A stretch of DNA of 64,000 nt from an uncultured Alphaproteobacteria bacterium (lineage in GTDB: Bacteria > Pseudomonadota > Alphaproteobacteria > HIMB59 > GCA-002718135): positions 4,852 through 68,851 of the forward strand of contig CACNKX010000006.1 of NCBI GenBank assembly GCA_902621165.1, given 5' to 3'. A program made the translations under genes and the position numbers. Numbering within the stretch: position 1 is the first letter of the stretch; every line of letters starts with the position of its first letter. Of the stretch, positions 25,385 through 39,037 are shown one piece after another. Under the pieces are notes generated by a model. It had not been told where the DNA came from. It worked only from the letters and a program-made list of their open reading frames with translations, and did not search any database.

Positions 25385-26262
25385 TAATTTGCTTCCTTTA
25401 ATTGTTTTATTTGCGAAGGTAATGAAACAATTCCACTTAAAACTATAAATATTGCTCCAATATAAGCATATAAATTCATATATTCATTAAATATAAATAT
25501 TCCAACTAAAGATGACCATAAAACCTGGAGGTAAACTAAACTAAATACTGATGCATAATGTTTTTGTGCAATCTTAAAAGCAGTAGTTGCAAAAAACATT
25601 GCTGAATTAATAAATAATGCAGCAGTTGAAATTAAAATAAATTCAAAAATAGTTACTTTTAATGGATTCATAAAAAATAAAGGTATTGAAATAAAGTGAA
25701 CAAAGAAACCGCCATAAAGAAAATACCCAATATTTGTAGTTACATGATTATATTTATTTACAATAAATGTTGTAATTGTAATTAATAATACACCGATAAG
25801 AACAATTAGATAATAAATATTAAAGCTTTCAAATCCCGGCTGTATAACAAATAGCACACCTAAAAAACCAATGAACAAAGATATGTAAGTTAAAAAATTT
25901 AATTTTTCATTTAGTAAAAAAATGGCAAATATTGTTCCCATCAATGGAGCAGTCATATTTAATGTTGTGAATTCTGGAAGTTTAATTTGTTCAAGTGTTA
26001 TAAAGGCAATAAAAGGCAAAGGGATATTTAAAAAACCTCTGAAAATAGGTGGAAAATAATTAGTACATTTTATATTTTTTTTTAAAGTTCCATTAAAAAA
26101 TAAATATAAGGGGAAACATAAAAAAATGGGTATTCCATAAAAGATGAAATGATAAAATTTTACATCTGTTTGAGTGAGGTAGTTTATTATTGCATCATTT
26201 GTTACAAAAAAAATTCCAGCAAAAAATAAAAGAATTGAAGAATAAACTATACTTTTTTTCAT
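25384..26262 (-). CDS. DMT-superfamily (EamA-like) transporter
   Basis: About 10 TM helices with a duplicated EamA-like pattern. Start set at MKKSIVYSS (26262), so it no longer overlaps divergent acyP. Confidence 0.75.
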   Translation of the reverse strand: MKKSIVYSSILLFFAGIFFVTNDAIINYLTQTDVKFYHFIFYGIPIFLCFPLYLFFNGTLKKNIKCTNYFPPIFRGFLNIPLPFIAFITLEQIKLPEFTTLNMTAPLMGTIFAIFLLNEKLNFLTYISLFIGFLGVLFVIQPGFESFNIYYLIVLIGVLLITITTFIVNKYNHVTTNIGYFLYGGFFVHFISIPLFFMNPLKVTIFEFILISTAALFINSAMFFATTAFKIAQKHYASVFSLVYLQVLWSSLVGIFIFNEYMNLYAYIGAIFIVLSGIVSLPSQIKQLKEAN

Positions 26263-26315
26263 ATAATGAATTGAAGGATTGTATGATAAAAAAAAGTACT
26301 TATATTGATACTTAA

Positions 26316-26612
26316 ATGAATACAAATGAAATAAAAACTTATCGACTTATTATAAAAGGAAAAGTTCAGGGAGTGGGCTTTAGACATTGGTTTAGCGATT
26401 TAGCAATATCTTTGGGATTAAATGGTTATATTCAAAATAAAGAAAGTAAAGATGAGGTAGAAGCCATAATTCAAGGAGATATGCAAAGTATACTATCTAT
26501 TACTGAAAAAGCTAAAGATGGTCCCTCACTAGCTCTAGTTGAAGGAGTTATTCCAAATAGTATCATTAGTAACGTTAAGTATTCAGGTTTTATAGTTAAA
26601 TACGAAACTTAA
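26316..26612 (+). CDS. acyP: Acylphosphatase
   Basis: 98 aa. The IKGKVQGVGFR motif is diagnostic. Confidence 0.85.
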   Translation: MNTNEIKTYRLIIKGKVQGVGFRHWFSDLAISLGLNGYIQNKESKDEVEAIIQGDMQSILSITEKAKDGPSLALVEGVIPNSIISNVKYSGFIVKYET

Positions 26613-27943
26613 TTAAAAACTTGCTTTATAGTTTTATGAAGAGAGTCAAATATTTCATCAATTTGATTTTTAGTAATTATGAATTGAGGACACAAAACAA
26701 TTGCAGGACCTAAAGGTCTGCAAATTAATCCATTATCAATTGATAAATTAGCAACTTTATCTCCCATATTAAGATGACCTTCAAATGGTTCTTTTGTATC
26801 TTTATTTTTTACCATCTCTAATGCAGCCATAAGACCTATACCTCTAGTTTCTCCAATGTGTTCATAATCATTAAATTCATTTAATCTTTCAAAAAAATAG
26901 GGTTCCATCAACTTTACATTATCTAATAAACCCTCATTCATAATTACATTTATTGCTTTCAAAGCAATTGCACATCCAACAGGATGACCACCAGCTGTAA
27001 AACCATGTGGAAATTCTTCTGCTTCTTCTGATACTTCAACAAATTTATCTGAAAATTCTTTATTAACTATAACTGCACCCATAGGAAAGTACCCAGCTGT
27101 TAAACATTTAGATGAGATAATTATATCCGGTTTGATATTGTAGGTTTCACATCCCCATAAATTTCCCGTTCTACCAAATCCACAAATTACTTCATCTGCG
27201 ATAAAAGGAATATTAAATTTTTTTAATATAGGCTGAACTAAATCAAAATACGATTTTGAAGGAGGTATACAACCTCCTGCACCTTGAACAGGTTCTGCAA
27301 CAAAACCTGCAATAGTTTCTGGATCCTCTTTGATGATTTTTTCTTCTAAATTTTTGGCCATTCTAAGTGAAAATTCTTCTTCCGTTTCATTCTCTAATCC
27401 ATATTTCCAATAATGAGGACATTCAATGTGAATAAATTCTTCAGATGGTAAACCAAACTCTTTATTGTATGGTTTGGCAGTCATTGAAGAAGCTCCTAAA
27501 GTAACACCATGATATCCATTAATTCTTGTTATAATTTTTCGTCTATTTGGCTTTCCAATTCTTGCATTTAACATCCATAACATTTTGACCATAGTGTCAT
27601 TAGCTTCAGATCCTGAATTACAAAAGAATACACGACCTTGATCAAAAGGTGATACTTCAATAATTTTTTCAGATAGCTGTAAAGTTTCTTCAGACAATCT
27701 TCCAAATAAAGAATGATAACCAGCAAATTTTTCATACTGTTTTTTTGCAACTTCAACTAATCCAGGATGGTCAAAACCAGCACACTGATTCCATAGACCA
27801 GAATTCCCATCTAGATATTTATTACCTTTAGTATCGTAAACATATATTCCTTTTCCATAAGAAATAACTAAAGGGCCTCTTTCATTTAATGACTTCAAGT
27901 CAGTAAATCCATATAAATGGGTGGAAGTATTTCTTTGTGGCAT
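26609..27943 (-). CDS. Class III (omega-) aminotransferase, PLP-dependent
   Basis: 444 aa. GSEANDT, ADEVICGFGRTG, SSKCLTAGYFP (PLP Lys region). Substrate not assignable from sequence. Confidence 0.85.
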   Translation of the reverse strand: MPQRNTSTHLYGFTDLKSLNERGPLVISYGKGIYVYDTKGNKYLDGNSGLWNQCAGFDHPGLVEVAKKQYEKFAGYHSLFGRLSEETLQLSEKIIEVSPFDQGRVFFCNSGSEANDTMVKMLWMLNARIGKPNRRKIITRINGYHGVTLGASSMTAKPYNKEFGLPSEEFIHIECPHYWKYGLENETEEEFSLRMAKNLEEKIIKEDPETIAGFVAEPVQGAGGCIPPSKSYFDLVQPILKKFNIPFIADEVICGFGRTGNLWGCETYNIKPDIIISSKCLTAGYFPMGAVIVNKEFSDKFVEVSEEAEEFPHGFTAGGHPVGCAIALKAINVIMNEGLLDNVKLMEPYFFERLNEFNDYEHIGETRGIGLMAALEMVKNKDTKEPFEGHLNMGDKVANLSIDNGLICRPLGPAIVLCPQFIITKNQIDEIFDSLHKTIKQVFN

Positions 27944-27967: not shown

Positions 27968-28861
27968 ATGAAAAGCAAGATTTTATTTTCAGTTGGGACG
28001 ATAGGTGTACTTTTTATGATGGCTGGCCAATTATCATTCTCTATAAATGATAGTTATGTCAAACTTGTTGTAAAAAATATAGGTGATGACAATTCATTAT
28101 ATTCTGTAATTTTTTTAAGAGGTTTAGTTACATCAAGTTTATTAGGTTTATATTTAGTTTTTTTCGAAAAAAAGAATTTAATTAAAATACTATCAATCAA
28201 AAGTTTTCATATAAGAGGTTTGTATGAAGTTTTAACGGCATTATTTTTTTTGGTTGGATTAATATTACTTCCAATATCTGAGGTTTATACACTTTTAATG
28301 ACTAATCCTTTCTTTGTTACAATATTTGCTTTTCTTTTTTTGGGAGAGAAAGTTGGAATTAGAAGATGGTGTGCAGTTATTATTGGGTTTTTAGGTGTGT
28401 TAGTAGTTGTAAATCCACAAAATTTTCAATTTAATTATCTTTTAATGTTACCAATTTTAGCTGCTATTTTTTTAACTATTAGAGATATTGCTACAAAAAG
28501 TTTAGCAACTAAATCAAATAGTGTTGAAATTACATTTGTGACAGCATTGTTAATTACTGGGTTTGCAGGGTTGGGTTCAATTATTTTTGGTTATCAAGTA
28601 AGCGGTGAAGATGTAAATTATATTCTTGCTTCTAGTATATTTGTTTTATTCGGATATTTATTTTCAGTATTAACAGTTTTTTATGCACCACTCTCATTAA
28701 CCGCCTCTGCAAGATACAGTGTAATTATATTTAGTATGATTTTTGGATATTTAATACTAGGTGAAACTCCAACTTTTAATATGATTATTGGTGCAATAAT
28801 TATAACGTTAAGTGGTTTATTTGTAATCAAAAGAGAAAAAGAAATAGGTAAGATTAAGTAA
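27968..28861 (+). CDS. DMT-superfamily (EamA-like) transporter
   Basis: 297 aa, 10 TM helices, two EamA-like halves. Confidence 0.8.
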   Translation: MKSKILFSVGTIGVLFMMAGQLSFSINDSYVKLVVKNIGDDNSLYSVIFLRGLVTSSLLGLYLVFFEKKNLIKILSIKSFHIRGLYEVLTALFFLVGLILLPISEVYTLLMTNPFFVTIFAFLFLGEKVGIRRWCAVIIGFLGVLVVVNPQNFQFNYLLMLPILAAIFLTIRDIATKSLATKSNSVEITFVTALLITGFAGLGSIIFGYQVSGEDVNYILASSIFVLFGYLFSVLTVFYAPLSLTASARYSVIIFSMIFGYLILGETPTFNMIIGAIIITLSGLFVIKREKEIGKIK

Positions 28862-28865: not shown

Positions 28866-29309
28866 TCACTGATCCTTACAAAAATTATAAACTTCTTCAA
28901 CATGACCTTTAACTTTAACTTTATTCCAAGAATTTAGAATTTTTCCATTTTTATCGATTACAAATGTAGATCTATCAATCCCAAAATATTTCCTACCATA
29001 CATAGATTTTTCTATCCAAATACCAAGTTTATCACAATTTTTTCCTTCATCCGAACCAAGTGGGTATTTCAATTTATACTTATCTGAAAATTTTTTATTC
29101 CGATCAACAGGATCTTTAGAAGCTCCAATTACATCAAAGCCAATTTTATTAAATTTTGTTAAATATTTCTGAAAATCTGCAACTTCTACTGAGCATCCAC
29201 CAGTTAACGCCTTAGGGTAAAAGAATAAAACTGTTTTATTCTTTAAATTAGATGAATCAAACTCATTTTCGTTTGTTAATTGAAGTTTTATCTTGGGAAT
29301 TTTTTTCAT
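28866..29309 (-). CDS. bcp: Peroxiredoxin, Bcp-type (thiol peroxidase)
   Basis: PxxxTxxC motif (PKALTGGC), then IGASKD and DRSTFVID. 2 nt downstream of the GCH II homologue. Confidence 0.8.
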   Translation of the reverse strand: MKKIPKIKLQLTNENEFDSSNLKNKTVLFFYPKALTGGCSVEVADFQKYLTKFNKIGFDVIGASKDPVDRNKKFSDKYKLKYPLGSDEGKNCDKLGIWIEKSMYGRKYFGIDRSTFVIDKNGKILNSWNKVKVKGHVEEVYNFCKDQ

Positions 29310-29311: not shown

Positions 29312-30433
29312 TTATACTACTAGTTTAAGACCGTATCCAGCTTTTTTAACTCTTGTTTTAAAATAATTTTTATTAAATTTATTTAATGTTGGCTTTGTAT
29401 TTATTTGATTTTCGACTTTAATTCCAGCTTTCTTAATAGAATTAATTTTATTTTTGTTGTTTGTAATAAGATTAACTTTATTTATTTTTAATAATTTCAG
29501 TATTCTAGCTGCAATATTAAAATCTCTTTCATCATCTAAAAAACCAATATTATGATCGGCGTCTATTGTATCCATACCCCTTGCTTGAAGAGAATAAGCT
29601 CTCATTTTATTAGCTAATCCTATTCCCCTACCTTCTTGTTCTAAATATAATATAATTCCACCATTATTTCTAACCATGTAATTGATTGATTGATTTAATT
29701 GTTCACCACAATCACATTTTAAAGAATGAAAAATATCACCTGTAAAACAAGCTGAATGTATTCTTAAATTAACAGATTTTTTATTTATTTTTGTTGGATT
29801 AACAATTATCGCTACATGTTTATCAGATCCAATATATGATTTGAATATTTTAAAATTAGAATTTTCGTTTTTTGGTAGTGGAACTTTTGCACTAGAAACT
29901 AATTTAATACTTTCACAAATTAATTCATTTTGCTTCAATAAATCTTTGTAATCAAATATTAAAATTCCATTCTTAAATCCAAATTCATTTATATTTTTGT
30001 AATATTTTTTATTAATTTTTTTAAAAACTAGCGATGGTATCATTTTAGCATTTTTGGATAGATCGATACAAACATTATGAAAATTTTTAGATTTGAATTT
30101 TTTAATATTGGTAAATTTAATTACTTTATTATTGCTAAGAGGATTGACAAATAAATTTATTATTTGATTTACATCTGTTTTGGGATTTATCTCAAAATAA
30201 ATATTACTTTTTATATTCTTATTAAAAATTGATTGAGCTTTTTGTTTAGTAATAAGTAGATATTTTTCATCAATTAAGTGCTTATTGAATTGATTAAAAA
30301 TTTTACTTTGGGAATGCTCTATATTAAAGAACATCCAATATTCCTTGTTATTTTGAATTATTAAGGGTCTTCCGGTCCTGAGTTCGTTAATTGCCCTATC
30401 TATTATAGTTCCTGTATTAGATTTGAAACTCAT
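29312..30433 (-). CDS. GTP cyclohydrolase II homologue with about 175-aa degenerate N-terminal (DHBP-synthase-like?) domain
   Basis: The C-terminal half matches RibA: RIHSACFTGDIFHSLKCDCG (Zn Cys triad), ILYLEQEGRGIGLANKMRAY, DERDF. Start set at MSFKSNTG (30433). The N-terminal domain lacks the RENEGD active-site motif. Confidence 0.85.
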   Translation of the reverse strand: MSFKSNTGTIIDRAINELRTGRPLIIQNNKEYWMFFNIEHSQSKIFNQFNKHLIDEKYLLITKQKAQSIFNKNIKSNIYFEINPKTDVNQIINLFVNPLSNNKVIKFTNIKKFKSKNFHNVCIDLSKNAKMIPSLVFKKINKKYYKNINEFGFKNGILIFDYKDLLKQNELICESIKLVSSAKVPLPKNENSNFKIFKSYIGSDKHVAIIVNPTKINKKSVNLRIHSACFTGDIFHSLKCDCGEQLNQSINYMVRNNGGIILYLEQEGRGIGLANKMRAYSLQARGMDTIDADHNIGFLDDERDFNIAARILKLLKINKVNLITNNKNKINSIKKAGIKVENQINTKPTLNKFNKNYFKTRVKKAGYGLKLVV

Positions 30434-30469
30434 GAAAACTTTATATAGATATAATTGAAATAAAAACAA

Positions 30470-31303
30470 ATGATTACATCTAAAAATATAGGAATTTTAC
30501 TAGATTTTATAAAAAAATCTAAAAAGAATAGTGATTTATATTTATTGGTTAAAAAAAATAGTATTTCTTTGTCATCAAAAAGAAAAAGTAATTTTTACAT
30601 AAAAAATAATAATCTGGAATCTAAAGTTAATATAAATAAATTTTATCAATCAATCTTAAATATCCTTCTCCCAATATTAAGAAAAAACAAAAAATTAGTT
30701 ATAGCTCAGATAGGACAAAGTATTGATGGTAGAATTGCATTAAATAATGGTAATTCACATTACATAAATAATCCCAAGAGTATTATTTATCTACATTGTT
30801 TACGAAGTATCAGTGATGCAATTATTGTAGGCTCAAATACCATTAAAAAAGACGATCCTCTATTAACAACAAGAAAAATAAAGGGCACAAATCCAAAAAG
30901 AATTATTATCGATGGCAGTCTTTCGCTAAATAACAAATATAAAATATTTAATGACGGTAATGAAAATATAATTTTTACAAAAAGTAATAAAAATATTAGA
31001 TTGAATAATTCAACAATAATAAGATTAAAAGAAAAAAATTTTACTAAAAACTTTATTACGCAAATAAAAAAACTTAAATATAAAAATATTTTAGTAGAGG
31101 GAGGATCAAAAACTATTTCAGAATTAATAAATAATAAATATATTGATATTCTTCAATTTATGATTGCCCCAATATTAATAGGCTCCGGAATTAATTCATT
31201 AAATTTAAAAGAAATTTCAAATCTCAATAAAGCTATCAGACCCAAACATAATTTTAATGAATTAGAAAATGAAATTATTGTTAATTTATTTCTTAATAGC
31301 TAA
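30470..31303 (+). CDS. RibD C-terminal-domain (DHFR-like) reductase; no deaminase domain
   Basis: GQSIDGRIA...., AIIVGSNTIKKDDPLLTTR and LVEGGSKT motifs of the RibD_C family. The about 70-aa N-terminus has no HAE / PCxxC cytidine-deaminase zinc motif. Confidence 0.7.
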   Translation: MITSKNIGILLDFIKKSKKNSDLYLLVKKNSISLSSKRKSNFYIKNNNLESKVNINKFYQSILNILLPILRKNKKLVIAQIGQSIDGRIALNNGNSHYINNPKSIIYLHCLRSISDAIIVGSNTIKKDDPLLTTRKIKGTNPKRIIIDGSLSLNNKYKIFNDGNENIIFTKSNKNIRLNNSTIIRLKEKNFTKNFITQIKKLKYKNILVEGGSKTISELINNKYIDILQFMIAPILIGSGINSLNLKEISNLNKAIRPKHNFNELENEIIVNLFLNS

Positions 31304-32074
31304 AAAATCTGTATTATTTAAAATAAATCTAGAATTTTTTTCTTTAATACTTTTTAAACGAAATTTTAACCAATCATCAAAATTAAGTTTATTTTTTTGA
31401 ATAATTTGTCTACAAAAATTTAAAAAATAAATTTGAAATTCATAATTTTTACTAACATCCCATGTAGAGTCTAAAACATATGTTTTGTGAGTCCTTTTAA
31501 ATACTTTATTTATTAATTCAGTACAATCTGGTCCAACAGCCAATTCCCCTATTCCTTTGTCAGATTTTTGATCTTTATTAAAAATATTAAGAATTTTTTT
31601 ATCATCATTGTGTTTTGGAAAAAATTTAAAATTACCGTTATAATTTAAGGCAAAATAGACAATTTCCGTATCAAGATTTAATTTATGAAAATTTTTAAAC
31701 CATGTTTTTGGAAGAATATCTAAAAAAGCAGATCCTGTAACTAAATTATAATCATTAAAATTTATTTTTTCTAAATTATTAATTACATCAACAATTTTAA
31801 AATTAGTTTTTTTTATTTTAGAAGATAATTTTATATTTTCTTTAAAATAATTTGTTGATTGATGTGATATGTCTACAAAAGACCAATATTGATTATTTAA
31901 AAATCGTGACTTAAGAAATCTATAATTGGATCCAGTGCCTGAACCCAAATCAATTATTTTAATATTTTTTTTATTTTTAAAAAATTTATTAATTAAATAT
32001 AGTATCCTTTTGTTTCTTGAATTTCTATCAACAGTTTCTCTAAGATTTAACCATTTATTTTGAAATTCATGCAT
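31286..32074 (-). CDS. Class I SAM-dependent methyltransferase
   Basis: Motif I IIDLGSGTGSN and post-I acidic residue (FVDIS). 18-nt convergent overlap with the RibD_C gene. Confidence 0.7.
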   Translation of the reverse strand: MHEFQNKWLNLRETVDRNSRNKRILYLINKFFKNKKNIKIIDLGSGTGSNYRFLKSRFLNNQYWSFVDISHQSTNYFKENIKLSSKIKKTNFKIVDVINNLEKINFNDYNLVTGSAFLDILPKTWFKNFHKLNLDTEIVYFALNYNGNFKFFPKHNDDKKILNIFNKDQKSDKGIGELAVGPDCTELINKVFKRTHKTYVLDSTWDVSKNYEFQIYFLNFCRQIIQKNKLNFDDWLKFRLKSIKEKNSRFILNNTDFLAIKK

Positions 32075-32075
32075 A

Positions 32076-33140
32076 TTAAATTAAATTAACAAATTTCTTA
32101 GCTGACTCTAGAGGAGTAAGAAGATATCTTTTATTTTTTTGAATATCAATATTTAGTTTATTAAAATTTTTTTTATTTAATATATTTTTAATAATTATAT
32201 TTCTAAGATCATTTACTTCAAATTTTTTGAAATAAATAATACCCTTTTTTCCTAGTGTATTTAAGATAGTATTTGTAAAAAAGGTTATAATTGGCTTTTT
32301 TATTATTAATGCATTTGCTAAAGACATTCCAAAACCTTCATATTTACTTACTGAAATGTAACAATCTGTTTTAGAATATAATTTTGCTAATTTTGTATCT
32401 GAAATAGTACCGTGGAATATTATTTTTCTTTTCATTGAATTTTTAGAAATAAATTTTTTGAGTTTTTTGTAATAACCTATATCTCTTGTAGTATCACCAA
32501 CAATTTCTAAAATAAAATTATCTAAAGGCTTTAAAACTTTTAATAAAAAAAGATAATTTTTTCTATTTATTATACTTCCACATGTTAAAAGATGAATTTT
32601 ACTATTGTTTTTAAAATTATAATTTGCTAGTCTTTCTATACCAGGTTCAACTACAGATATTTTATTATTTAGAACCTTAAATTCATTTATTAATAAATTT
32701 TTTGTATTTTTAGATGTAACAATAAATTTATTTATTTTTTTGAAATTTTCTTTTTCTAATCTTAAAAATTTTTTTGACCTTTGACCTTTAAATTCAAGAT
32801 ATAAAGGATGATGTATTAGCGCGATAACATTATAAGTAAGTATTTTTTTAAAAATAGTATACATTCCTTCTAAAGCTAATCCATCGATTATAATTTTAGA
32901 GTCAGGATCAATTTTATCTAAAATTTTTAGAAAATATTTTATATCGTTATTTGTAGGAAAAGGATAATTTTCACTTAGCGCAATTGGTCTAATATTTATA
33001 TCCATTATCTTTGCATATTCTAGGATATTTTTTTCATAAATATATCCTCCAGTTTTTGCATTAATATTTCCTGGATAAACAAAATAAATATAAGATTTAT
33101 TTTTAGATAACCTCTTTTTCATATGATGCCCATGCAACAT
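32076..33140 (-). CDS. Glycosyltransferase, GT4 (group 1) family
   Basis: GT-B C-terminal motif EGFGMSLANALIIKKPII (E-x7-E region). An alternative start at MKKRLSK (33122) is possible. Overlaps the 3' end of the PTPS homologue. Confidence 0.75.
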   Translation of the reverse strand: MLHGHHMKKRLSKNKSYIYFVYPGNINAKTGGYIYEKNILEYAKIMDINIRPIALSENYPFPTNNDIKYFLKILDKIDPDSKIIIDGLALEGMYTIFKKILTYNVIALIHHPLYLEFKGQRSKKFLRLEKENFKKINKFIVTSKNTKNLLINEFKVLNNKISVVEPGIERLANYNFKNNSKIHLLTCGSIINRKNYLFLLKVLKPLDNFILEIVGDTTRDIGYYKKLKKFISKNSMKRKIIFHGTISDTKLAKLYSKTDCYISVSKYEGFGMSLANALIIKKPIITFFTNTILNTLGKKGIIYFKKFEVNDLRNIIIKNILNKKNFNKLNIDIQKNKRYLLTPLESAKKFVNLI

Positions 33141-33501
33141 TTGATTCTTGCAAGGTTATTTTAATTTTTTTTAAAGATTTGTAATCTTCAGAGAATTCAT
33201 TTCTTAGTCTATTCAAGATCTTATTGCAAATATCCTCTGCTAAAAACTCTGTTGAGGTAATTTTTCCCTTAAATTCATCAATCTCATCTAAATTTTGATA
33301 ATTATATATTTTAAGAATATCTTTTAAAGTCGTGGACACTATTCCTAAATCCATAATTATATTGTATTTATTAAGTTTATCAGTGAAAAATTCTGCATCT
33401 ACTAAATATGTAGCTCCATGCATATTTTGGGCTGGTCCAAATACTTCTCCAGGTAAAGAATGAGCTATTAGAATATTTTCTCTTACTTTTATCGAATACA
33501 T
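33103..33501 (-). CDS. 6-pyruvoyl-tetrahydropterin synthase (PTPS)/QueD-fold (T-fold) homologue lacking catalytic Cys and part of the Zn site
   Basis: IAHSLPGEVFGPAQNMHGATYLVDAEF aligns with PTPS/QueD AAHRL.....C...HGH.Y.V. The Cys position is Ala and HGH is HGA. Confidence 0.8.
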   Translation of the reverse strand: MYSIKVRENILIAHSLPGEVFGPAQNMHGATYLVDAEFFTDKLNKYNIIMDLGIVSTTLKDILKIYNYQNLDEIDEFKGKITSTEFLAEDICNKILNRLRNEFSEDYKSLKKIKITLQESNVAWASYEKEVI

Positions 33502-33503
33502 AA

Positions 33504-34463
33504 TTAATATTTAACTAGATGCATTACTGTATCCTTATTTTTAAGGATTTTATAGTAATCTTTTTCTAAATCAAAAAAATTACTTTCACTAGTAATTAAT
33601 TTTTCTAATTTTGAATTTTTTAAAGATTTAATTGCTAATTTTAATCTCCCCTCAAAATCATATTTATTTTTCATGTATTTTGGTATTTTAGATACCTGTG
33701 AGCTAATAATTTTTAATCTTTTAGAATGAAAATACCCACCTAAGGCAACTTCTCCTTTATTTTTACCAAACCAACTAGCTTCTACTATTTTTCCTTCGAT
33801 AGATAATTTTTCCATTAAAGAATTTAGAACTTTATAATTAGCTGTAGTGTTTATTGCTACATCTATTTTCTCAATCTTTCTTATATCAATAAAATTTAAT
33901 CCTAAATAGTTGGCAATTTTTCTTTTATTTTTATTATTATCAAAAACATAGACATTTTTATATCCATTAATTTTAAAAAAAAATGCAGTTAATAATCCTA
34001 CAGAGCCAAGTCCTACAATTAGAATTTTGTTATTACTTTTAGATTGTGCGTCCCAAAAGATATTAATTGCTGTTTCCATATTTGCAGTTAGAACATATTT
34101 TCTCAAATTTCCTTTTGGTAAAAAAATTAAATTTTGAATAGAAATTTCATATAAATCTTGATGAGGATAAAGACTAAATATTTTTTTATTTATATATTTC
34201 CTTGGACCATCGATAATATTCCCAACATTTATATAACCGTATTTTATAGGTAAATTAAAAGAACCCTCTTGAAAAGGGGCTTTCATTAATTCAAATTGAT
34301 CCTTACTTACGCTTTTAGATGAAACTAATTTTTCAGTTCCCTTGCTAATACCTGAGTAAATAGTTTTAACTAAAACTGTTTTGTTATTTTTATTGTAAAC
34401 AAGTTTTTTTTGATAAATTTTAGCTTGTTTTTTTTTATCAATCCATAAAGAATAAGATTTCAT
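33504..34463 (-). CDS. Medium-chain dehydrogenase/reductase (MDR)-family dehydrogenase, probably zinc-independent
   Basis: GroES-like N-terminus (VLVKTIYSGISKGTE, where the usual Zn-ligand Cys is Ser) and Rossmann motif ILIVGLGSVGLL. Confidence 0.7.
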   Translation of the reverse strand: MKSYSLWIDKKKQAKIYQKKLVYNKNNKTVLVKTIYSGISKGTEKLVSSKSVSKDQFELMKAPFQEGSFNLPIKYGYINVGNIIDGPRKYINKKIFSLYPHQDLYEISIQNLIFLPKGNLRKYVLTANMETAINIFWDAQSKSNNKILIVGLGSVGLLTAFFFKINGYKNVYVFDNNKNKRKIANYLGLNFIDIRKIEKIDVAINTTANYKVLNSLMEKLSIEGKIVEASWFGKNKGEVALGGYFHSKRLKIISSQVSKIPKYMKNKYDFEGRLKLAIKSLKNSKLEKLITSESNFFDLEKDYYKILKNKDTVMHLVKY

Positions 34464-34476
34464 AATTTACTTATAA

Positions 34477-35244
34477 ATGTATAATAAAAAAATGCTAACA
34501 AACTTTTGGGAAGAATTAACAACAAATGAAATTAAAAAAATAAATAGAAAAACAGTTTTAATTTTCCCATTTTCATCAATAGAACAACACGGTCCGCATC
34601 TTCCATTAAATACTGATAAAAAAATTCTTGAAGGAATATTATTAGAATTCAATAAAAAATATAATTCAAATAAATATTTAATTATGCCTGAAATATATTT
34701 TGGTTCAGCTGCTGAACATACAGATTTTGATGGAACAATAAGTATTGATTCATTGGAATTTATATCGCACTCTTTGTCAATTTTAGAAAATGTATGTAAA
34801 TTAAAATTTAAAAATATATTACTTTTAAATAGTCATGGTGGACAAATTAGCCATATAGATATTATTGCTAAAGAATTGAAATCAGAATTTAAGATAAACA
34901 TAGTAAAAGGCACATATTTTTTATTTGATCAATTTAAAGGAATTATATCAAGTAAAGAAAAAGACTTTGGTTATCACGGTGGAGAATTTGAAACATCTAT
35001 TATGTTATATTTATTTCCAAACCTAGTTAGGCAATCTAAAATTTCTAAACATAGATTATCTCCCGATTATTTATCATCTAAAACCATTTCTTATGAAAAA
35101 AATATTAAGAAAACTTGGGTAACTAAAGAATTAAGTAAAAGTGGAATTATTGGAGATCCTAGAAAATCCAATGCACAGATAGGAAAAAAAATAATTGATA
35201 GAGTAACACAAAAATTAGATAAGATAATAAATGAAATGTTTTAG
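34477..35244 (+). CDS. Creatininase-fold metal-dependent amidohydrolase
   Basis: Family motifs SSIEQHGPHLPLNTD, NSHGGQ and YHGGEFETS. Divergent from the MDR gene with only a 13-nt spacer. Confidence 0.85.
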   Translation: MYNKKMLTNFWEELTTNEIKKINRKTVLIFPFSSIEQHGPHLPLNTDKKILEGILLEFNKKYNSNKYLIMPEIYFGSAAEHTDFDGTISIDSLEFISHSLSILENVCKLKFKNILLLNSHGGQISHIDIIAKELKSEFKINIVKGTYFLFDQFKGIISSKEKDFGYHGGEFETSIMLYLFPNLVRQSKISKHRLSPDYLSSKTISYEKNIKKTWVTKELSKSGIIGDPRKSNAQIGKKIIDRVTQKLDKIINEMF

Positions 35245-35267
35245 ATTTTTATTTATTAAGAATTAAA

Positions 35268-35831
35268 TTAAAAAAATTTTTCGTATACCTCATTGTACTC
35301 ACAATAGTATACCTCACAGTTATCCAGCATATATTCAGTTATTTGACTTAAGAATGTACCATGACTAACTAATACAATTTTTTGTAAATTAAGGTTTTTG
35401 ATAGATAGGAGAAAAGACCTTAATCTCATTTTAATATCATTGTGAGACTCTTGTATAATTTTTTTTTCATTAATAGGTTTATTATTATTCCACCAAAAAT
35501 CATTTAAATTATTAAAATCAAAATCATTAAATTCTTTTTTTAATTTTTTTGGTTGTCTTCCTACATCACATGAATGGTACAAATGTTCTCTTATTAAAGG
35601 TTCAATTACAGGTTTATTAGATGGAAAAACAATAGAGAATGTTTCCAATGTTCTTGTTAAGGGGGAACAAAAATAATTATCAAATTTGATATTTTTAATT
35701 CTATTATTTAATTTTTTTGCTTGCTCAACTCCTCTTTGAGTAATTCTTGCATCATAATAATAAGTTGGATTATCTAAATCTGATGCTGCATTAGCTTCTG
35801 ACTCTGCATGTCTTATAAGATATAATTTCAT
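35268..35831 (-). CDS. Histidine phosphatase (phosphoglycerate mutase-like) family protein
   Basis: N-terminal LIRHAESEAN (RHG-type catalytic motif) and a C-terminal SHG motif (LVSHGTF). Confidence 0.8.
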   Translation of the reverse strand: MKLYLIRHAESEANAASDLDNPTYYYDARITQRGVEQAKKLNNRIKNIKFDNYFCSPLTRTLETFSIVFPSNKPVIEPLIREHLYHSCDVGRQPKKLKKEFNDFDFNNLNDFWWNNNKPINEKKIIQESHNDIKMRLRSFLLSIKNLNLQKIVLVSHGTFLSQITEYMLDNCEVYYCEYNEVYEKFF

Positions 35832-36039: not shown

Positions 36040-36936
36040 TTAATTCAAATTATTTTCTACTAATACTTTTTTAACAGTTTCACCCATTACAGAAGGGTTT
36101 TTGGAAATTGTAACTCCACACTCTTTAAGAAGTTCTACTTTTTCTATTGCACTTTCACCATAAGCAGAAACAATTGCGCCAGCGTGCCCCATCACACGAC
36201 CTTTAGGTGCAGTTAGTCCTGCTATATACGCAATTACCGGTTTACTCATATTTTCTTTAGCAAATTGTCCAGCTTCAACTTCTTGTGGGCCACCTATTTC
36301 ACCTATCATTAAAACTGCAATAGTTTCATCATCATTTTCAAACTTTTCAATTATATCTCTAAAAGAACTTCCATTTATTGGATCGCCTCCTATACCCACA
36401 CTTGTTGAAACACCAATTTCTAAATCTTTAAGTTGTTGTGCAGCTTCATATCCCAAAGTGCCAGATCTACTAACTATTCCTATTTTACCTTCTTTGTAAA
36501 TATGACCAGGCATAATACCTAACATAGATTTACCAGGGCTAATTATTCCTGCACAATTCGGACCTACTAATCCCATTTTTTTATCTTTTGGATATCTTCT
36601 CATGTATCTTTTTATTTTAACCATATCATGAGAAGGAATACCGTCAGTAATAGCCACACACGTTTTAATACCTGCATCAGCAGCTTCCATTGCTGAGTCT
36701 GCTGCAAAGGCTGGTGGGACAAATAAAATTGATGTTGATGCTCCAGTTTGATCTACAGCTTCTTTAACAGTATTAAAAACAGGAAGATTTAAATGAGTCA
36801 TACCACCCTTTCCAGGTGTTACCCCGCCAACAACATTAGAACCATACTTAATCATTTCTTCAGCATGAAAACTTCCAATTTTACCAGTGAATCCTTGGAC
36901 TAAAATTTTTGTATTTTTGTGAATGATTATAGACAT
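36040..36936 (-). CDS. mtkB: Malate--CoA ligase (malate thiokinase) alpha subunit; succinyl-CoA ligase alpha is the alternative
   Basis: CoA-ligase alpha fold and phosphohistidine loop MGHAGAI. An RYMRRYPKDKK insertion and GIGGDPINGSSF resemble MtkB as I recall it. Operon with mcl. Confidence 0.65.
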   Translation of the reverse strand: MSIIIHKNTKILVQGFTGKIGSFHAEEMIKYGSNVVGGVTPGKGGMTHLNLPVFNTVKEAVDQTGASTSILFVPPAFAADSAMEAADAGIKTCVAITDGIPSHDMVKIKRYMRRYPKDKKMGLVGPNCAGIISPGKSMLGIMPGHIYKEGKIGIVSRSGTLGYEAAQQLKDLEIGVSTSVGIGGDPINGSSFRDIIEKFENDDETIAVLMIGEIGGPQEVEAGQFAKENMSKPVIAYIAGLTAPKGRVMGHAGAIVSAYGESAIEKVELLKECGVTISKNPSVMGETVKKVLVENNLN

Positions 36937-36938
36937 GA

Positions 36939-38099
36939 TTATCCAAGAGCCTTCACTGCTTTATTTGCTGCATCTTCTAAAGTTGATGCCTCAATGTAAT
37001 TAATATTGCTTTTTTTAAGTATTTCATTTCCCTTTTCGACGTTAGTTCCAGCTAAACGTATAACTAAAGGATGTTTAATTTCAATTTTTGATAAAGCTTG
37101 AACAATTCCTTCTGCAACCCAATCACATCTATTAATTCCTGCAAAGATATTAACTAATATTACCTTAACTTTTGTGTCCATAGAGATTAATTTAAACGCT
37201 TTAACTATTTTTTCAGGCGTTGCACCTCCGCCAACATCTAAAAAATTTGCAGGTTGACCACCAGCAAGTTTTATCATATCCATAGAAGCCATTGCTAAGC
37301 CTGCACCATTAATAATATTACCAATATTCCCATCTAAGCTTACATAATTCATTCCTCTGTCAGAAGCATAAACTTCATTTGAATTTTCTTGTGTTTTATC
37401 TCTAAGTTCTGCAATTTCGTCTCTTCTAAACATTGCATTATTATCAAAACTCATTTTACAATCTAATGCTAATATTTCATCTTGGTGTGATACAACTAAT
37501 GGGTTAACTTCAACCATTGTTGCATCAAGCTCACTAAAAGCTTTATAACAACCAATAATTGTATTTGCAGCTCTTGAGATCAATTTGGATTCAATTCCTA
37601 AACCAAAAGCTATTTCTCTTGCTTGAAATTGTTGAATACCAACTGCTACTTCTATTTTAGATCGTATAATTGTTTCAGGTTTTTCTTTTGAAATTTCTTC
37701 TACACTCATTCCACCTTCTGTTGAGGCTACAACCATTATACTTTCTGAAGATCTATCAAACACTAAACCTAAATATAATTCGTGTTTGATATCAGTTGCT
37801 TCTTCAATATAAATTCTATTTATTATCTTACCCCCTGGACCAGTTTGGTTTGTAATTAATTTTTTACCTAACAATTTATCAGTTGCATCAGCAACTTCTA
37901 ACGGAGAATTACATATTATAATTCCTCCCGCTTTACCTCTAGCACCTGAGTGAACTTGCGCTTTTACAACCCATTTTGAACCACCAATTTCTCTTGCTTT
38001 GTTTTCTGCATTTTCTGGACTATAAACAATACCACCAGTAGGAATTTTAACACCAAAATCAGACAATATTTTTTTTGCTTGATATTCGTGTATATCCAT
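36939..38099 (-). CDS. mtkA: Malate--CoA ligase beta subunit (ATP-grasp); succinyl-CoA ligase beta is the alternative
   Basis: MDIHEYQAK start. NIFAGINRCDWVAEG differs from NIFGGIVRCD in SucC, and VGIQQFQAREIAF is also present. Its ATG overlaps the mcl stop (TAATG). Confidence 0.65.
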   Translation of the reverse strand: MDIHEYQAKKILSDFGVKIPTGGIVYSPENAENKAREIGGSKWVVKAQVHSGARGKAGGIIICNSPLEVADATDKLLGKKLITNQTGPGGKIINRIYIEEATDIKHELYLGLVFDRSSESIMVVASTEGGMSVEEISKEKPETIIRSKIEVAVGIQQFQAREIAFGLGIESKLISRAANTIIGCYKAFSELDATMVEVNPLVVSHQDEILALDCKMSFDNNAMFRRDEIAELRDKTQENSNEVYASDRGMNYVSLDGNIGNIINGAGLAMASMDMIKLAGGQPANFLDVGGGATPEKIVKAFKLISMDTKVKVILVNIFAGINRCDWVAEGIVQALSKIEIKHPLVIRLAGTNVEKGNEILKKSNINYIEASTLEDAANKAVKALG

Positions 38100-39037
38100 T
38101 ACTTGCTCTCAATTAATTTATTTATATTTACAATATTTTCAGCCATTCTTGCAGATGCAGCGTCGATCATTCTTCCATCAAGCTGAGCAGCACCCTTTCC
38201 TTCAGTAGCTGCTTTTTCTAATTCTAATAATATTTTTTTTGCTTTATCTATTTCTTCTTTAGGTGGAGAAAAAACTTCATTAGCAAGATCTATTTGTGAT
38301 GGATGTATAGCCCATTTACCCTCAAAACCAATTGCTGCAGCTCTTTTTGCTGCATCAAGATATCCTTCTTTGTCATTAAAATCACCAAAAGGTCCGTCTA
38401 TTGCTCTTAAGCCATATGATCTACAAGTCATTACTAATGTTGATAAGCCATGATGCCATTGATCTCCAGGGTAATCAGGATTTAACCCACCTATAACAAC
38501 GGTTCTTGCGCGCATACTTGCTGCATAATCTGCAACTCCAAAATGTAATGCTTCTAGTCTTGAACTTGATGTTGCAATTGGTTGAATATTAGACATTCCT
38601 AGTGCTGTTTCAATTAAACATTCTAAACCTATTTTATTTTCAAATTTTTTATTTTGCTCAATTTGATTAAGCAAACAATCAACCATATATACATCAGATG
38701 ATGAGCCTACTTTTGGAATTAATAATGTATCAACCCTATCACCTACCTCTTCAATAATTTCAATTACATCACGGTACATATAGTGTGTATCCAAACCGTT
38801 AATTCTTATAGAGATTGTTTTACCTTCTTCTTTCCAATTATATTCTTTTATTGCATTAATAACATTTCTTCTTGCATCAATTTTATCATTTGGAGATACT
38901 GCATCTTCTAGGTCTAAGAAAATATAATCGGCATTTGATTTTAATGCTTTCTCAAACATCTTTGGATTAGAGCCAGGGACTGCCAACTCACTTCTGTGTA
39001 ATCTAGATTTAGCAGGTTTATAAAATAAATGGCTCAT
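38099..39037 (-). CDS. mcl: L-malyl-CoA / beta-methylmalyl-CoA lyase (HpcH/CitE-like)
   Basis: RLHRSELAVPGSNPKMFEKA, IFLDLEDAV, INGLDTHYMYRDV and GFEGKWAIHPSQIDLANEVF closely match Mcl of serine-cycle and ethylmalonyl-CoA organisms as I recall them. Confidence 0.85.
   Translation of the reverse strand: MSHLFYKPAKSRLHRSELAVPGSNPKMFEKALKSNADYIFLDLEDAVSPNDKIDARRNVINAIKEYNWKEEGKTISIRINGLDTHYMYRDVIEIIEEVGDRVDTLLIPKVGSSSDVYMVDCLLNQIEQNKKFENKIGLECLIETALGMSNIQPIATSSSRLEALHFGVADYAASMRARTVVIGGLNPDYPGDQWHHGLSTLVMTCRSYGLRAIDGPFGDFNDKEGYLDAAKRAAAIGFEGKWAIHPSQIDLANEVFSPPKEEIDKAKKILLELEKAATEGKGAAQLDGRMIDAASARMAENIVNINKLIESK

Follow-up and report, generated by a model that had tools for sequence, protein, structure and literature searches.

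In Chlamydia, the product of GTP cyclohydrolase II (GCH II) is diverted to pterins (PMC4161248), and members of the creatininase family such as ArfB and BrbF provide precedents for formamidases (PMC9478397). A subfamily of T-fold proteins carrying an FGPAQ motif, termed PTPS-IV, has been published together with its GCH II and RibD_C neighbourhood (PMC5445326, PMC5041015), and one of these papers, a review, assigns PTPS-IV proteins a part in F420 synthesis and refers to unpublished work for this (PMC5041015). The cluster family described here has therefore already been noticed in the literature and is not newly noticed.

A conserved unit of seven genes

The eight adjacent ORFs proposed by the initial annotation are all present in the window, i.e., the whole 64-kb stretch of DNA that was analysed (Table 1). 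Their domain assignments agree with Pfam, the methyltransferase and the ADH_zinc_N dehydrogenase giving weak matches under the cut-offs. The described spacers of 36 nt (30434-30469), 13 nt (34464-34476), and 23 nt (35245-35267) were also recovered, conditional on GCH II starting at Met13 (position 30433), its probable start; the other junctions are overlaps or gaps of 1-2 nt.

Table 1. Genes of the cluster and the adjoining phosphatase gene.
Feature	Position	Strand	Support
GCH II, GTP_cyclohydro2	29312-30469	-	Pfam 1e-48, residues 193-356 only
RibD_C-type NADPH pyrimidine reductase	30470-31303	+	Pfam 1.5e-30
Class I SAM methyltransferase	31286-32074	-	Weak, under Pfam cut-off
GT4 retaining glycosyltransferase, Glycos_transf_1	32076-33140	-	Pfam 6e-18
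PTPS-IV T-fold protein	33103-33501	-	Pfam PTPS 9e-21
MDR dehydrogenase, ADH_zinc_N	33504-34463	-	Pfam weak
Creatininase-family metal amidohydrolase	34477-35244	+	Pfam Creatininase 6e-55
Histidine phosphatase (branch 1), His_Phos_1	35268-35831	-	Pfam 8e-23

Conservation analysis showed that the first seven genes (29312-35244) form a real, conserved, and dedicated unit, as had been claimed. In 80 loci from many phyla, the PTPS homologue has within 9 kb an MDR dehydrogenase (74 loci), a GT4 glycosyltransferase (73), a creatininase (52), a GCH II (51), a methyltransferase (50), and a RibD_C protein (28). Because this neighbourhood recurs around the PTPS homologue in so many phyla, it exceeds what chance would give. 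The family comprises at least 591 confirmed loci in species genomes, and full-text searches of the literature returned no assigned product, in line with the earlier suggestion of a widespread but unassigned pathway. The locus counts are too high, since numerous Streptomyces genomes among them are related to each other. All seven families occur in identical order in Acidobacteriota (L079) and Gammaproteobacteria (L024 and L035), and a further gammaproteobacterial locus (L013) matches as far as its contig extends. They are likewise clustered in Gemmatimonadota (L039), the full set recurs in Alphaproteobacteria, and most of it is found in actinomycetes. A 68%-identical relative keeps the cluster within wholly different flanks.

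Several lineages have reduced versions. RibD_C is absent from most Streptomyces clusters, and GCH II and the creatininase are absent from Rhodobacterales clusters and from those genome loci of Rhizobiales that were sampled, so that housekeeping enzymes must be invoked there; the cluster on the Agrobacterium pAt plasmid includes GCH II. Fusion proteins join PTPS-IV to GT4, MDR to PTPS-IV, or PTPS-IV to a HAD domain, the methyltransferase, and MDR, and in haptophytes (coccolithophore algae) three PTPS-IV repeats are fused to a methyltransferase.

The histidine phosphatase, which carries RHAE and SHG motifs, was counted as an eighth member by the initial annotation. It lies near the PTPS homologue in 5 of the 80 loci, all from the window's own lineage, and it is adjacent only in the lineage of 80-98% identity (L001-5 and L083), whereas the 68% lineage lacks it. 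Between it and the CoA-ligase genes lies a gap of 208 nt. The seven genes are thus robust, and the phosphatase is a lineage-specific neighbour. Depending on the lineage, phosphatases of three unrelated families accompany the cluster: His_Phos in the window, IMPase in Rhodobacterales, and, in the fusion, a HAD domain resembling pyrimidine 5'-nucleotidase. The latter two keep a phosphatase step plausible.

The cluster is not a riboflavin operon

GCH II has an intact active site, in which the Zn ligands Cys54/65/67 as well as Tyr105 and Arg128 (numbered as in E. coli) are all kept. The best full-length NCBIfam match of the protein is NF006456/PRK08815 (265 bits against a cut-off of 464), and the GCH IIs of Gram-negative clusters constitute their own family near this model; the Agrobacterium copy lies on a plasmid. 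The N-terminal half is a degenerate RibB-like domain that aligns with cluster-linked orthologues and is devoid of the acidic loop of DHBPS. Judged by its residues in a comparison with E. coli RibB, this domain is dead. The RibD_C protein has a 75-aa N-terminus lacking the deaminase domain and its HAE/PCxxC motif, and its catalytic Asp128 and Glu210-Gly-Gly are invariant in the alignment. At the specificity position, Lys152 in EcRibD (PMC3631187), the window's protein has Gln80; of 18 cluster orthologues, 17 have Gln or His there and none has Lys. The substrate of the reductase is thus probably the 2-amino form (DARoPP).

Neither a deaminase, a lumazine synthase, a riboflavin synthase, nor an FMN riboswitch was found in the 64-kb window. 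Together with the dead RibB-like domain, this bears out the earlier view that the seven-gene cluster is not a riboflavin operon. GCH II, a BrbF-like creatininase, RibD_C, and the phosphatase could nonetheless represent an early module of riboflavin (or FO/F420 precursor) synthesis in archaeal or Rhizobiales style, with the glycosyltransferase, methyltransferase, dehydrogenase, and T-fold genes as unrelated neighbours. The fully intact GCH II, the lack of a second ribA or ribD in the window, the requirement for BrbF-type formamidases in riboflavin synthesis of S. meliloti and Brucella (PMC9478397), and the reported role of PTPS-IV in F420 synthesis all fit such a module. However, the supposed bystanders are the best-conserved neighbours (MDR in 74 and GT4 in 73 of the 80 loci) and are joined to one another in fusion proteins of several organisms, the deaminase is missing, and the reductase has Gln where the bacterial Lys stands. 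Moreover, the creatininase scores 30.6 bits against the ArfB model (cut-off 180), a distant clade III homologue from Methylobacterium did not complement a brbF mutant (PMC9478397), and the radical-SAM CxxxCxxC motif expected of FO synthase occurs in no window ORF of at least 120 aa. We therefore regard a housekeeping role as very improbable.

The creatininase retains the ligand pattern ExH...D...HGG...HGGExE and is coupled to GCH II: among 54 full-length loci, 38 have both genes, one has GCH II only, none has the creatininase only, and 15 have neither. It may be a formamidase or another amide hydrolase. The ArfB-type deformylation proposed initially suits the actinobacterial clusters, in which Tyr105 of GCH II is replaced by Met or His. 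In contrast, the window's GCH II retains Tyr105 and would be expected to release formate itself, so that a separate deformylase appears unnecessary here; since the creatininase is kept, it might have another role, e.g., deacetylation of a GlcNAc conjugate.

The T-fold protein and the Zn-less dehydrogenase

In the PDB, the T-fold protein matches SCO6650 alone (3d7j, 8e-34), and Streptomyces loci have a GCH II 4.5-5 kb away from this homologue, which confirms a link that the initial annotation had pointed out. The protein bears the FGPAQ motif of the PTPS-IV type (PMC5445326). In the alignment with QueD, His13 and His27 are kept, the catalytic Cys27 and the third Zn-binding His, His33, are replaced by Ala23 and Ala29, the dyad Asp70/His71 is lost, and the ligand-anchoring Glu110 of QueD is retained as Glu118. 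In the MDR protein, Ser40 takes the place of the Zn-binding Cys and YGY that of the His/Glu ligands, so that the alignments support the catalytic losses noted earlier for both proteins. The invariant motifs of the MDR are S-x-G-T-E, YGY, PHQ, ETAxNxxWD, and GxGxxG. One match is BchC-like (5e-13), and the best PDB profile matches are RspB, L-iditol 2-dehydrogenase, butanediol dehydrogenase, and galactitol-1-P 5-dehydrogenase (8e-11 to 2e-8), pointing to a Zn-less NAD(P) oxidoreductase akin to polyol and polyol-phosphate dehydrogenases. The MDR gene lies directly upstream of PTPS-IV in 74 of the 80 loci.

These two proteins could be taken to indicate a pterin route, in which the GCH II product would be converted to 7,8-dihydroneopterin 3'-phosphate or a relative. 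Either the T-fold protein would host an Amadori-type isomerisation, or the MDR would oxidise the ribityl C2' and the ring would then close. RibD_C would serve as a pteridine reductase similar to DHFR, a capacity that the M. tuberculosis RibD_C protein Rv2671 has, and the pathway would end in a methylated pterin glycoside resembling cyanobacterial or Chlorobium pteridine glycosides or solfapterin. T-fold proteins bind pterins and purines, the anchoring Glu is preserved in PTPS-IV, polyol 2-dehydrogenases are the nearest relatives of the MDR, dedicated glycosyltransferases making pterin glycosides exist, and Chlamydia obtains the pterin precursor through GCH II and an Amadori isomerase (PMC4161248). 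However, PTPS-IV is without any catalytic residue of PTPS or QueD, RibD_C retains all residues of a ribosylaminopyrimidine reductase, and the cluster has neither a GCH I nor a sepiapterin reductase nor any known pteridine glycosyltransferase, making this route rather unlikely.

The glycosyltransferase, the methyltransferase, and membrane genes of relatives

Among PDB entries, the GT4 family profile best matches the T. elongatus sucrose-phosphate synthase (SPS; 6kih, 2e-40) and MshA (7qsg/3c4q/3c48, 1e-35 to 3e-32), both of which use small phosphorylated acceptors; an unnamed glycosyltransferase (7mi0, 5e-30), a partial-length GT (5i45, 4e-23), and PimB' (5e-23) follow, and PimA (2e-17) is a still weaker match. 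The methyltransferase belongs to a cluster-specific class I SAM family whose alignment shows the SAM motif GxGxG to be invariant and has a WLxLRExxD motif in the N-terminal part, and its PDB matches are generic methyltransferases only. Its gene is placed after GT4 in 50 of the 80 loci, and some organisms have it as a fusion with GT4 or with PTPS-IV/MDR.

In most relatives, a CDP-alcohol transferase and an MprF-like flippase accompany the cluster, a hint that the product is destined for the envelope or a lipid and is more than a soluble metabolite. A GTP-derived polyol phosphate could serve as the alcohol acceptor of the CDP-alcohol phosphatidyltransferase, comparable to inositol-1-P in PI/PIM synthesis, with glycosylation by GT4, outward flipping by the MprF-like protein, and possibly transfer to periplasmic glucans. 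A CDP-OH_P_transf gene is divergent from MDR in 56 of the 80 loci, spanning Actinomycetota, Alpha-, Beta-, and Gammaproteobacteria, Acidobacteriota, Gemmatimonadota, and Bacteroidota, and a flippase-like TIGR00374/PF03706 protein is found in 48-56. In nine loci an MdoH-like GT2 replaces the transferase, and none of the 54 full-length loci tested has both. Among NCBIfam models, the transferase is nearest to PgsA and archaetidylinositol-phosphate synthase, two enzymes that use polyol phosphates, and the lower-tier PimB' and PimA matches of GT4 point the same way. However, homologues of the transferase, the flippase-like protein, the MdoH-like protein, and the 'sulfatase' are absent from the 64-kb window, L001-L008, and L083, the eukaryotic fusions consist of soluble domains only, and we know of no lipid with a GTP-derived polyol-phosphate head group. 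For the window organism, the seven genes would have to make only the head group, with the membrane steps encoded elsewhere; we consider this reading rather unlikely.

Proposed pathway

Our tentative scheme, to which we give slightly less than even credence, is that the seven genes, probably assisted by the histidine phosphatase, convert GTP into a glycosylated and methylated compound that retains guanine's 2-amino-4-oxo-pyrimidine ring on a polyol chain. Vicine provides a precedent for pyrimidine glucosides derived from GCH II. According to its family chemistry and intact residues, GCH II would open GTP to 2,5-diamino-6-ribosylamino-4(3H)-pyrimidinone 5'-phosphate, from which the creatininase may strip residual N-formyl groups, a step that would be obligatory in the actinobacterial versions. 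RibD_C, with its Gln for Lys, would then reduce the ribosyl to a ribityl chain and leave the 2-amino group in place. In the least certain step, PTPS-IV would bind the 2-amino-4-oxo-pyrimidine via its conserved Glu and, together with the Zn-less MDR, rearrange or oxidise the side chain, possibly with closure of a pterin ring. With RibD_C making the ribityl chain, no defined function is left for MDR and the T-fold protein, and the scheme leaves the published link of PTPS-IV to F420 (PMC5041015) unexplained.

Following its nearest relatives, GT4 would glycosylate the polyol while it is phosphorylated, and a phosphatase, here the histidine phosphatase, would take off the phosphate like SPP and MshA2, before the methyltransferase methylates the product. 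In most other lineages, the CDP-alcohol phosphatidyltransferase and the MprF-like flippase would then join this product to a phospholipid for export. In the streamlined lineage of the window, these membrane genes are not nearby, so that the product may remain soluble.

Gene content of the cluster

All eight ORFs lie exactly where the initial annotation had placed them, and each of its eight domain assignments was recovered by Pfam (GTP_cyclohydro2, RibD_C, class I SAM methyltransferase, Glycos_transf_1/GT4, PTPS, ADH_zinc_N, Creatininase and His_Phos_1), although the matches for the methyltransferase and ADH_zinc_N are weak. The 36-, 13- and 23-nt spacers given there hold provided that the GTP cyclohydrolase II (GCH II) gene starts at Met13 (30433), and the remaining junctions are overlaps or gaps of 1–2 nt. 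The G/C content is ∼20–22% in the cluster and ∼27% in the window. None of the eight proteins passes the cut-off of an NCBIfam equivalog model, and no paralogs of cluster genes were found elsewhere in the 64 kb.

The cluster had been described as not being a riboflavin operon. We find that the Zn-motif domain of RibD is absent, so that the deaminase is missing: the protein matches RibD_C only, and its N-terminal 75 aa lack HAE/PCxxC. Neither the lumazine synthase nor the riboflavin synthase family is matched by any of the eight cluster proteins (Pfam, NCBIfam). The claim that there is no active DHBP synthase also stands, as there is no Pfam DHBP_synthase match and the N-terminal domain of GCH II is a degenerate RibB-like domain in which the acidic catalytic loop is missing. 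An Rfam scan of the whole window at gathering thresholds returned two tRNAs only and no FMN riboswitch, an element that is common but not universal in riboflavin operons. Scans for promoters and terminators in the cluster, which are uninformative in such AT-rich DNA, gave fewer promoter-like sites than in shuffled sequence and two terminator-like matches, both within the gene for the MDR dehydrogenase. Possibly, the cluster GCH II has a dual role that includes riboflavin supply.

Conservation of the cluster as a unit

One genome per GTDB species was scanned with a degenerate pattern and a 13-sequence alignment of PTPS-IV, the T-fold protein of the cluster. The scan yielded at least 600 stretches and at least 591 confirmed PTPS-IV loci, so that the unit occurs in at least 591 species genomes from about seven phyla. 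The best 80 of the at least 591 loci, which were used for neighborhood counts, include marine single-cell "uncultured Alphaproteobacteria" (98% and 68% identity), Streptomyces, other actinomycetes, Rhizobiales, Rhodobacterales, Gammaproteobacteria, Hydrogenophaga, Gemmatimonadota, Acidobacteriota and Bacteroidota. The proposed co-occurrence is clear in this set, in which related Streptomyces genomes dominate the counts: within 9 kb of PTPS-IV we find the MDR dehydrogenase in 74/80, the GT4 glycosyltransferase in 73/80, the creatininase homolog in 52/80, GCH II in 51/80, the methyltransferase in 50/80 and RibD_C in 28/80 of these best 80 loci. Across the same best 80 loci, the one-strand order MDR, PTPS-IV, GT4, methyltransferase is conserved. 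In the window, GCH II (PF00925) and RibD_C (PF01872) are both located within 3.5 kb of PTPS-IV; a neighborhood of PTPS-IV with these two families was reported in 2017, where PF00925 was mislabeled as FolE2 (PMC5445326).

All seven genes in the same order are found in one locus from Acidobacteriota (L079), two from Gammaproteobacteria (L024 and L035) and the marine lineage of 68% identity (L006–L008). A further gammaproteobacterial locus, L013, matches this order as far as its contig extends, and in L039, a Longimicrobiales MAG (Gemmatimonadota), all seven genes cluster with GCH II ∼4 kb beyond the rest. The flanks of L006–L008, which encode a GST, glutamine synthetase, a CMD-family protein and an MFS transporter, are entirely unlike those of the window, indicating that the seven genes move as a block. 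Thus, the initial eight-gene cluster holds for seven genes, which recur across phyla, but not for the histidine phosphatase, which flanks the block only in the lineage of 80–98% identity.

Gene fusions (PTPS-IV with GT4, and MDR with PTPS-IV) tie the core of the cluster together. A further fusion is P0259, a protein of 1032 aa with PTPS-IV, HAD, methyltransferase and MDR domains, whose HAD domain has "pyrimidine 5'-nucleotidase" as its best match (TIGR01993, 9e-14). Among metagenome and eukaryote sequences, eukaryote-type proteins (P0144, P0146, P0124 and P0123) carry three tandem PTPS-IV repeats together with a methyltransferase. Emiliania huxleyi XP_005759297 and a Gephyrocapsa oceanica transcript fall into the sequence cluster of the haptophyte protein P0144; a HAD domain was not confirmed in P0144 and is recognizable only in P0259.

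The genes on the left flank of the cluster are syntenic in L083, a locus of the 80–98% identity lineage, and absent from the 68% lineage. The neighbors of the histidine phosphatase encode the alpha and beta subunits of a CoA ligase (malate thiokinase-/succinyl-CoA synthetase-like) and an HpcH/malyl-CoA-lyase-like protein, an arrangement that is kept in L001–L005 and L083 (80–98% identity) and not in the 68% lineage, and that suggests glyoxylate/malyl-CoA metabolism in the streamlined bacterium of the window. Further along, a 1023-aa ORF has an ortholog in L083 with Pfam matches to APH (phosphotransferase), Peptidase_M23 and class III aminotransferase, an unusual fusion.

Features of the window and of related loci (G/C values as fractions; window mean ∼0.27)
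Feature	Sequence	Position	Strand	Remark
G/C minimum	window	4001–6000		0.19; 561-aa ORF with signal-peptide-like start
EamA/DMT-type permease	window	25384–26325	−	left flank
Acylphosphatase	window	26316–26612	+	left flank
Class III aminotransferase	window	26609–27943	−	left flank
EamA/DMT-type permease	window	27968–28861	+	left flank
Bcp peroxiredoxin	window	28866–29309	−	left flank, directly abuts GCH II
Seven-gene unit	window	29312–35244
G/C minimum	window	30001–34000		0.205–0.22, over the cluster
Histidine phosphatase	window	35268–35831	−	neighbor of the unit
CoA-ligase alpha and beta, HpcH/malyl-CoA-lyase-like	window	36040–39037	−	beside the histidine phosphatase
1023-aa ORF	window	40834–43902	−
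Membrane module (in most of the related loci L011–L080 and L082)	L082	3896–5705		example, outside the window
Membrane module	L079	8253–9161, 12237–13259		example, outside the window
Cluster GCH II	L082 (Agrobacterium pAt)	5726–6832
MDR, PTPS-IV, GT4, hypothetical (methyltransferase), RibD_C	L081 (Methylosinus trichosporium OB3b plasmid pOB3b1, 285 kb)	7968–12194		mdoH adjoins

GTP cyclohydrolase II and its coupling to the creatininase homolog

In the 385-aa ORF of the window GCH II, Pfam GTP_cyclohydro2 spans residues 193–356 only. Alignments with 2bz0 and by MAFFT show that the zinc-binding Cys54, Cys65 and Cys67 as well as Tyr105 and Arg128 (E. coli numbering) are all kept; since these are residues of E. 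coli RibA, the protein looks like a formate-releasing GCH II. Tyr105 is also kept in all Gram-negative cluster copies, whereas actinobacterial cluster copies have Met or His, and the replacement typical of SCO6655 (FAPy-forming variants; Met in SCO6655) is absent from the window. Over its first 185 aa, the protein aligns with the N-termini of other GCH IIs linked to the cluster, and this part resembles a RibB/DHBPS domain minus its acidic catalytic loop, as judged against E. coli RibB. The actinobacterial cluster copies are short, and the Gram-negative ones combine Tyr105 with a dead RibB domain. The best model for all of the latter is NF006456/PRK08815, and its cut-off is passed by the cluster GCH II of the Agrobacterium pAt plasmid (471 vs 464 bits). 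As this plasmid protein is a cluster-linked paralog with a dead RibB domain, the model name "GTP cyclohydrolase II RibA" may propagate a riboflavin annotation onto a non-riboflavin paralog. The third RibA copy of S. coelicolor reportedly gives rise to the formyl-pyrimidine AFRPP, a result ascribed to Spoonamore in 2006. A 2026 review assigns this copy a new function unrelated to flavin biosynthesis (PMC13151069).

The creatininase homolog matches Pfam Creatininase with 6e-55, and its metal-ligand motifs (E-x-H, D, HGG and HGGExE) align with those of 3a6g and 3lub. It scores 30.6 bits against the ArfB equivalog model NF033501, which has a cut-off of 180, and its best NCBIfam match is MftE with 105 bits, again below the cut-off. 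In 54 full-length, phylogenetically non-independent loci, the creatininase and the GTP cyclohydrolase are almost perfectly coupled: 38 loci have both genes, one has GCH II only, none has the creatininase only, and 15 have neither. We also considered that the creatininase might act as a GlcNAc deacetylase by analogy to MshB, but disfavor this reading because the coupling is to GCH II rather than to GT4.

Both archaea (ArfB) and the bacteria S. meliloti and Brucella (BrbF) have established creatininase-fold formamidases for AFRPP (PMC9478397), which explains the coupling in actinomycetes. The ArfB-type deformylation suggested initially thus fits the actinobacterial clusters with Met or His at Tyr105, whereas the Tyr-type GCH II of the window should release formate itself, and the hydrolase may have a different role there.

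The reductase, T-fold and dehydrogenase proteins

The RibD_C protein of the window keeps the catalytic Asp128 and Glu210-Gly-Gly, which are invariant in the family alignment. The position that sets the specificity of such reductases is Lys in bacteria, which use the deaminated substrate AROPP, and Thr in fungi or Asn in archaea, which use the GCH II product 2,5-diamino-6-ribosylamino-4(3H)-pyrimidinone 5'-phosphate (DARoPP) (PMC3631187). At the position of E. coli RibD Lys152, the window has Gln80; of 18 cluster orthologs, 12 have Gln, 5 His and 1 Val, and none has Lys. The lack of Lys predicts that the protein reduces a 2-amino substrate, with no earlier deamination.

The T-fold protein reads EVFGPAQNMHGAT, where an FGPAQ signature replaces the CxxxHGH Zn/Cys motif; this signature defines the PTPS-IV subfamily of COG0720 (PMC5445326). 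Its sole PDB match is SCO6650 from S. coelicolor (3d7j; E = 8e-34, residues 1–129; ∼50% identity by eye), which shares FGPAQ. An alignment with QueD shows that it keeps Glu118, the residue that anchors the ligand, and two of the three histidines that bind Zn. The same alignment bears out the view of a PTPS homolog devoid of catalytic residues: the Cys is replaced by Ala23, the third His by Ala29, and the Asp-His dyad is lost. Likewise, the MDR dehydrogenase has the predicted Ser (Ser40) at the Zn-Cys position and, in addition, YGY where His/Glu ligands are expected.

Single-sequence PDB searches with the MDR, methyltransferase and GT4 proteins gave nothing useful, and relatives were therefore sought with family profiles. 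The closest matches of the MDR profile are polyol and polyol-phosphate dehydrogenases (8e-11 to 2e-8), chiefly in the Rossmann half, and the methyltransferase profile gave generic matches only. For GT4, the best matches are sucrose-phosphate synthase (SPS; 6kih, 2e-40; PMC7264703), MshA (1e-35 to 3e-32), an unnamed glycosyltransferase (7mi0, 5e-30) and PimB' (5e-23).

Membrane genes and phosphatases in related clusters

The annotated Agrobacterium pAt plasmid carries a series of genes for a flippase-like protein, a CDP-alcohol phosphatidyltransferase, "RibA", MDR, PTPS-IV, GT4, methyltransferase, a RibD-family protein and cytochrome b. Searching all loci with the proteins of this plasmid, we found the CDP-alcohol phosphatidyltransferase in 56/80 of the best 80 of the at least 591 loci, usually divergent from MDR and Pfam-confirmed in four phyla, and the flippase-like (MprF-like) membrane protein (PF03706/TIGR00374) in 48–56/80. 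Nine transferase-less loci among these 80 have an MdoH/OpgH-like GT2 in its place. The transferase is closest to the models of PgsA and archaetidylinositol-phosphate synthase, two enzymes with polyol phosphates as substrates. Other neighbors in the best 80 loci are a protein annotated as "sulfatase" (20 loci), an FkbM methyltransferase (14 loci) and cytochrome b561 (5 loci). No homolog of the CDP-alcohol transferase, the flippase, the MdoH-like GT2 or the "sulfatase" is present in the whole window, in L001–L008 or in L083. The window is thus a stripped-down variant, with seven soluble enzymes and a histidine phosphatase but no membrane module.

Across lineages, the cluster is accompanied by phosphatases of three families, alongside a GT4 that is nearest to SPS and MshA: a histidine phosphatase in the window, an IMPase inside the Rhodobacterales loci L010 and L070, and the HAD domain of P0259. 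That unrelated phosphatases of three kinds occur in different lineages is what one would expect if a single real step had undergone non-orthologous displacement.

Relation to characterized systems

The closest clusters are those around SCO6650–SCO6655. As stated in the initial annotation, a GCH II paralog lies near the Zn-less PTPS homolog SCO6650 in Streptomyces, and SCO6650 is the PDB relative of the window protein. The MDR–PTPS-IV–GT4 core is common to both, GCH II and the creatininase are nearby, and a methyltransferase is present in many loci. The Streptomyces clusters differ from the window, which has Tyr105, the dead RibB domain, RibD_C and the histidine phosphatase but no membrane genes: their GCH II carries Met at the Tyr105 position and lacks the N-terminal domain, a flippase-like protein and a CDP-alcohol phosphatidyltransferase are present in addition, and RibD_C is usually missing.

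By analogy, the nearest characterized logic is threefold. First, the early riboflavin steps of archaea and fungi (ArfA/ArfB/ArfC, Rib1/Rib7), together with BrbF, offer GTP ring opening and a creatininase-fold formamidase; in ArfA/ArfB/ArfC and Rib1/Rib7, a 2-amino ribosylaminopyrimidine is also reduced before deamination, with a specificity residue other than Lys. However, the window has a type II (Tyr105) rather than a type III cyclohydrolase, lacks the deaminase and the DHBP, lumazine and riboflavin synthases, and places its genes with GT4, methyltransferase, MDR and T-fold genes.

Second, the GCH II VC1 of faba bean is a RibA-family paralog that diverts GTP-derived diaminopyrimidines into pyrimidine glycosides (bioRxiv 10.1101/2020.02.26.966523). 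The vicine/convicine route thus resembles the cluster in its dedicated paralog feeding pyrimidine glycosides, but it is a plant route in which the ribosyl is proposed to be hydrolyzed off and the base glucosylated directly. We know of no T-fold protein, MDR, RibD_C-only reductase or methyltransferase in it.

Third, in the SPS/SPP and MshA/MshA2 pairs, a GT4 glycosylates Fru-6-P or inositol-phosphate and a dedicated phosphatase follows; the identity of the window GT4 itself to SPS and MshA is low, and its acceptor would presumably be a GTP-derived polyol phosphate instead of a sugar or inositol phosphate. Most relatives also resemble the PI/PIM pathway (PIP synthase, PIP phosphatase, PimA/PimB'), since a CDP-alcohol phosphatidyltransferase related to the PgsA and inositol-phosphate synthase models adjoins GT4 and probably has a polyol phosphate as its acceptor. 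The differences are that the polyol would be GTP-derived, that a flippase-like protein is added, and that the module is absent from the window.

Cyanobacteria and Chlorobium likewise make a glycosylated GTP-derived heterocycle, a pteridine glycoside, by means of a PTPS-family protein, sepiapterin reductase and pteridine glycosyltransferase, but their route uses GCH I and a competent Zn/Cys PTPS, whereas the window has a type II enzyme and a PTPS without catalytic residues. A role in F420 synthesis was considered because a 2016 review assigns PTPS-IV such a role, citing unpublished work (PMC5041015). None of the window ORFs of at least 120 aa has the CxxxCxxC motif of FO synthase (radical-SAM CofG/CofH, FbiC), and no F420 genes were annotated among the recurrent neighbor families. 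Because of this lack of association with F420 or FO genes, we reject F420 as the main explanation.

A proposed pathway

Starting from the enzyme families, their intact or absent catalytic residues, synteny, fusions and nearest characterized relatives, we infer a chemistry that goes beyond family-level function. GCH II (EC 3.5.4.25) would convert GTP to DARoPP, formate and PPi, with the creatininase as formamidase or helper, and RibD_C would reduce DARoPP to a 2-amino ribityl compound. The T-fold/MDR pair may then process the side chain, which is the weakest step of the scheme. Alternatively, a ring closure to a dihydroneopterin-type pterin could occur at this point; the precedent from Chlamydia cited for such a branch is real, as RibA and an Amadori isomerase lead to a pterin precursor there (PMC4161248). 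Following the side-chain route, GT4 would glycosylate the phosphorylated polyol, after which the phosphate would be removed and a methyl group added. In most lineages the product would probably be passed to the CDP-alcohol phosphatidyltransferase and flipped outward, whereas the window lineage may keep it in soluble form or may encode the membrane steps at another place in its genome.

It is possible, if rather doubtful, that the cluster family makes a new class of GTP-derived pyrimidine- or pterin-polyol glycoconjugate, which in most bacteria would become the head group of a phospholipid or decorate the envelope, by way of the CDP-alcohol phosphatidyltransferase and the MprF-like flippase, and would be soluble in streamlined marine Alphaproteobacteria and coccolithophores.

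Implications

As an observation, the cluster family is not new: SCO6650 was reportedly crystallized as a protein of "unknown function", and the PTPS-IV subfamily is said to have been named in 2012. With at least 591 loci, and no product assigned to the PTPS-IV/SCO6648–6655 cluster in the full-text literature searched, the idea of a widely distributed but unassigned pathway is upheld. The current names "RibA", "6-carboxytetrahydropterin synthase" and "zinc-binding alcohol dehydrogenase" are probably misleading for its genes.

Small molecules made from GTP, such as folate, riboflavin, F420, queuosine, molybdopterin and biopterin, nearly always serve as central cofactors, and a further conserved branch to which no product is assigned thus marks a real gap in metabolism. 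The minimal seven-gene soluble version, the predicted intermediates and the specificity residue of the reductase make the question testable, and Streptomyces coelicolor, the Agrobacterium pAt plasmid and the Methylosinus OB3b plasmid provide tractable relatives for a lipid or envelope phenotype, the methanotroph OB3b being a culturable, genetically accessible host. A compact, very AT-rich (27% G/C) marine genome devotes seven or eight genes to this pathway, and the unit is also present as multi-domain fusions in Emiliania and Gephyrocapsa. If the reading as a new class of glycoconjugate is true, abundant ocean microbes, soil actinomycetes and rhizobia would have in common a new, widespread redox-active cofactor, antioxidant or lipid.
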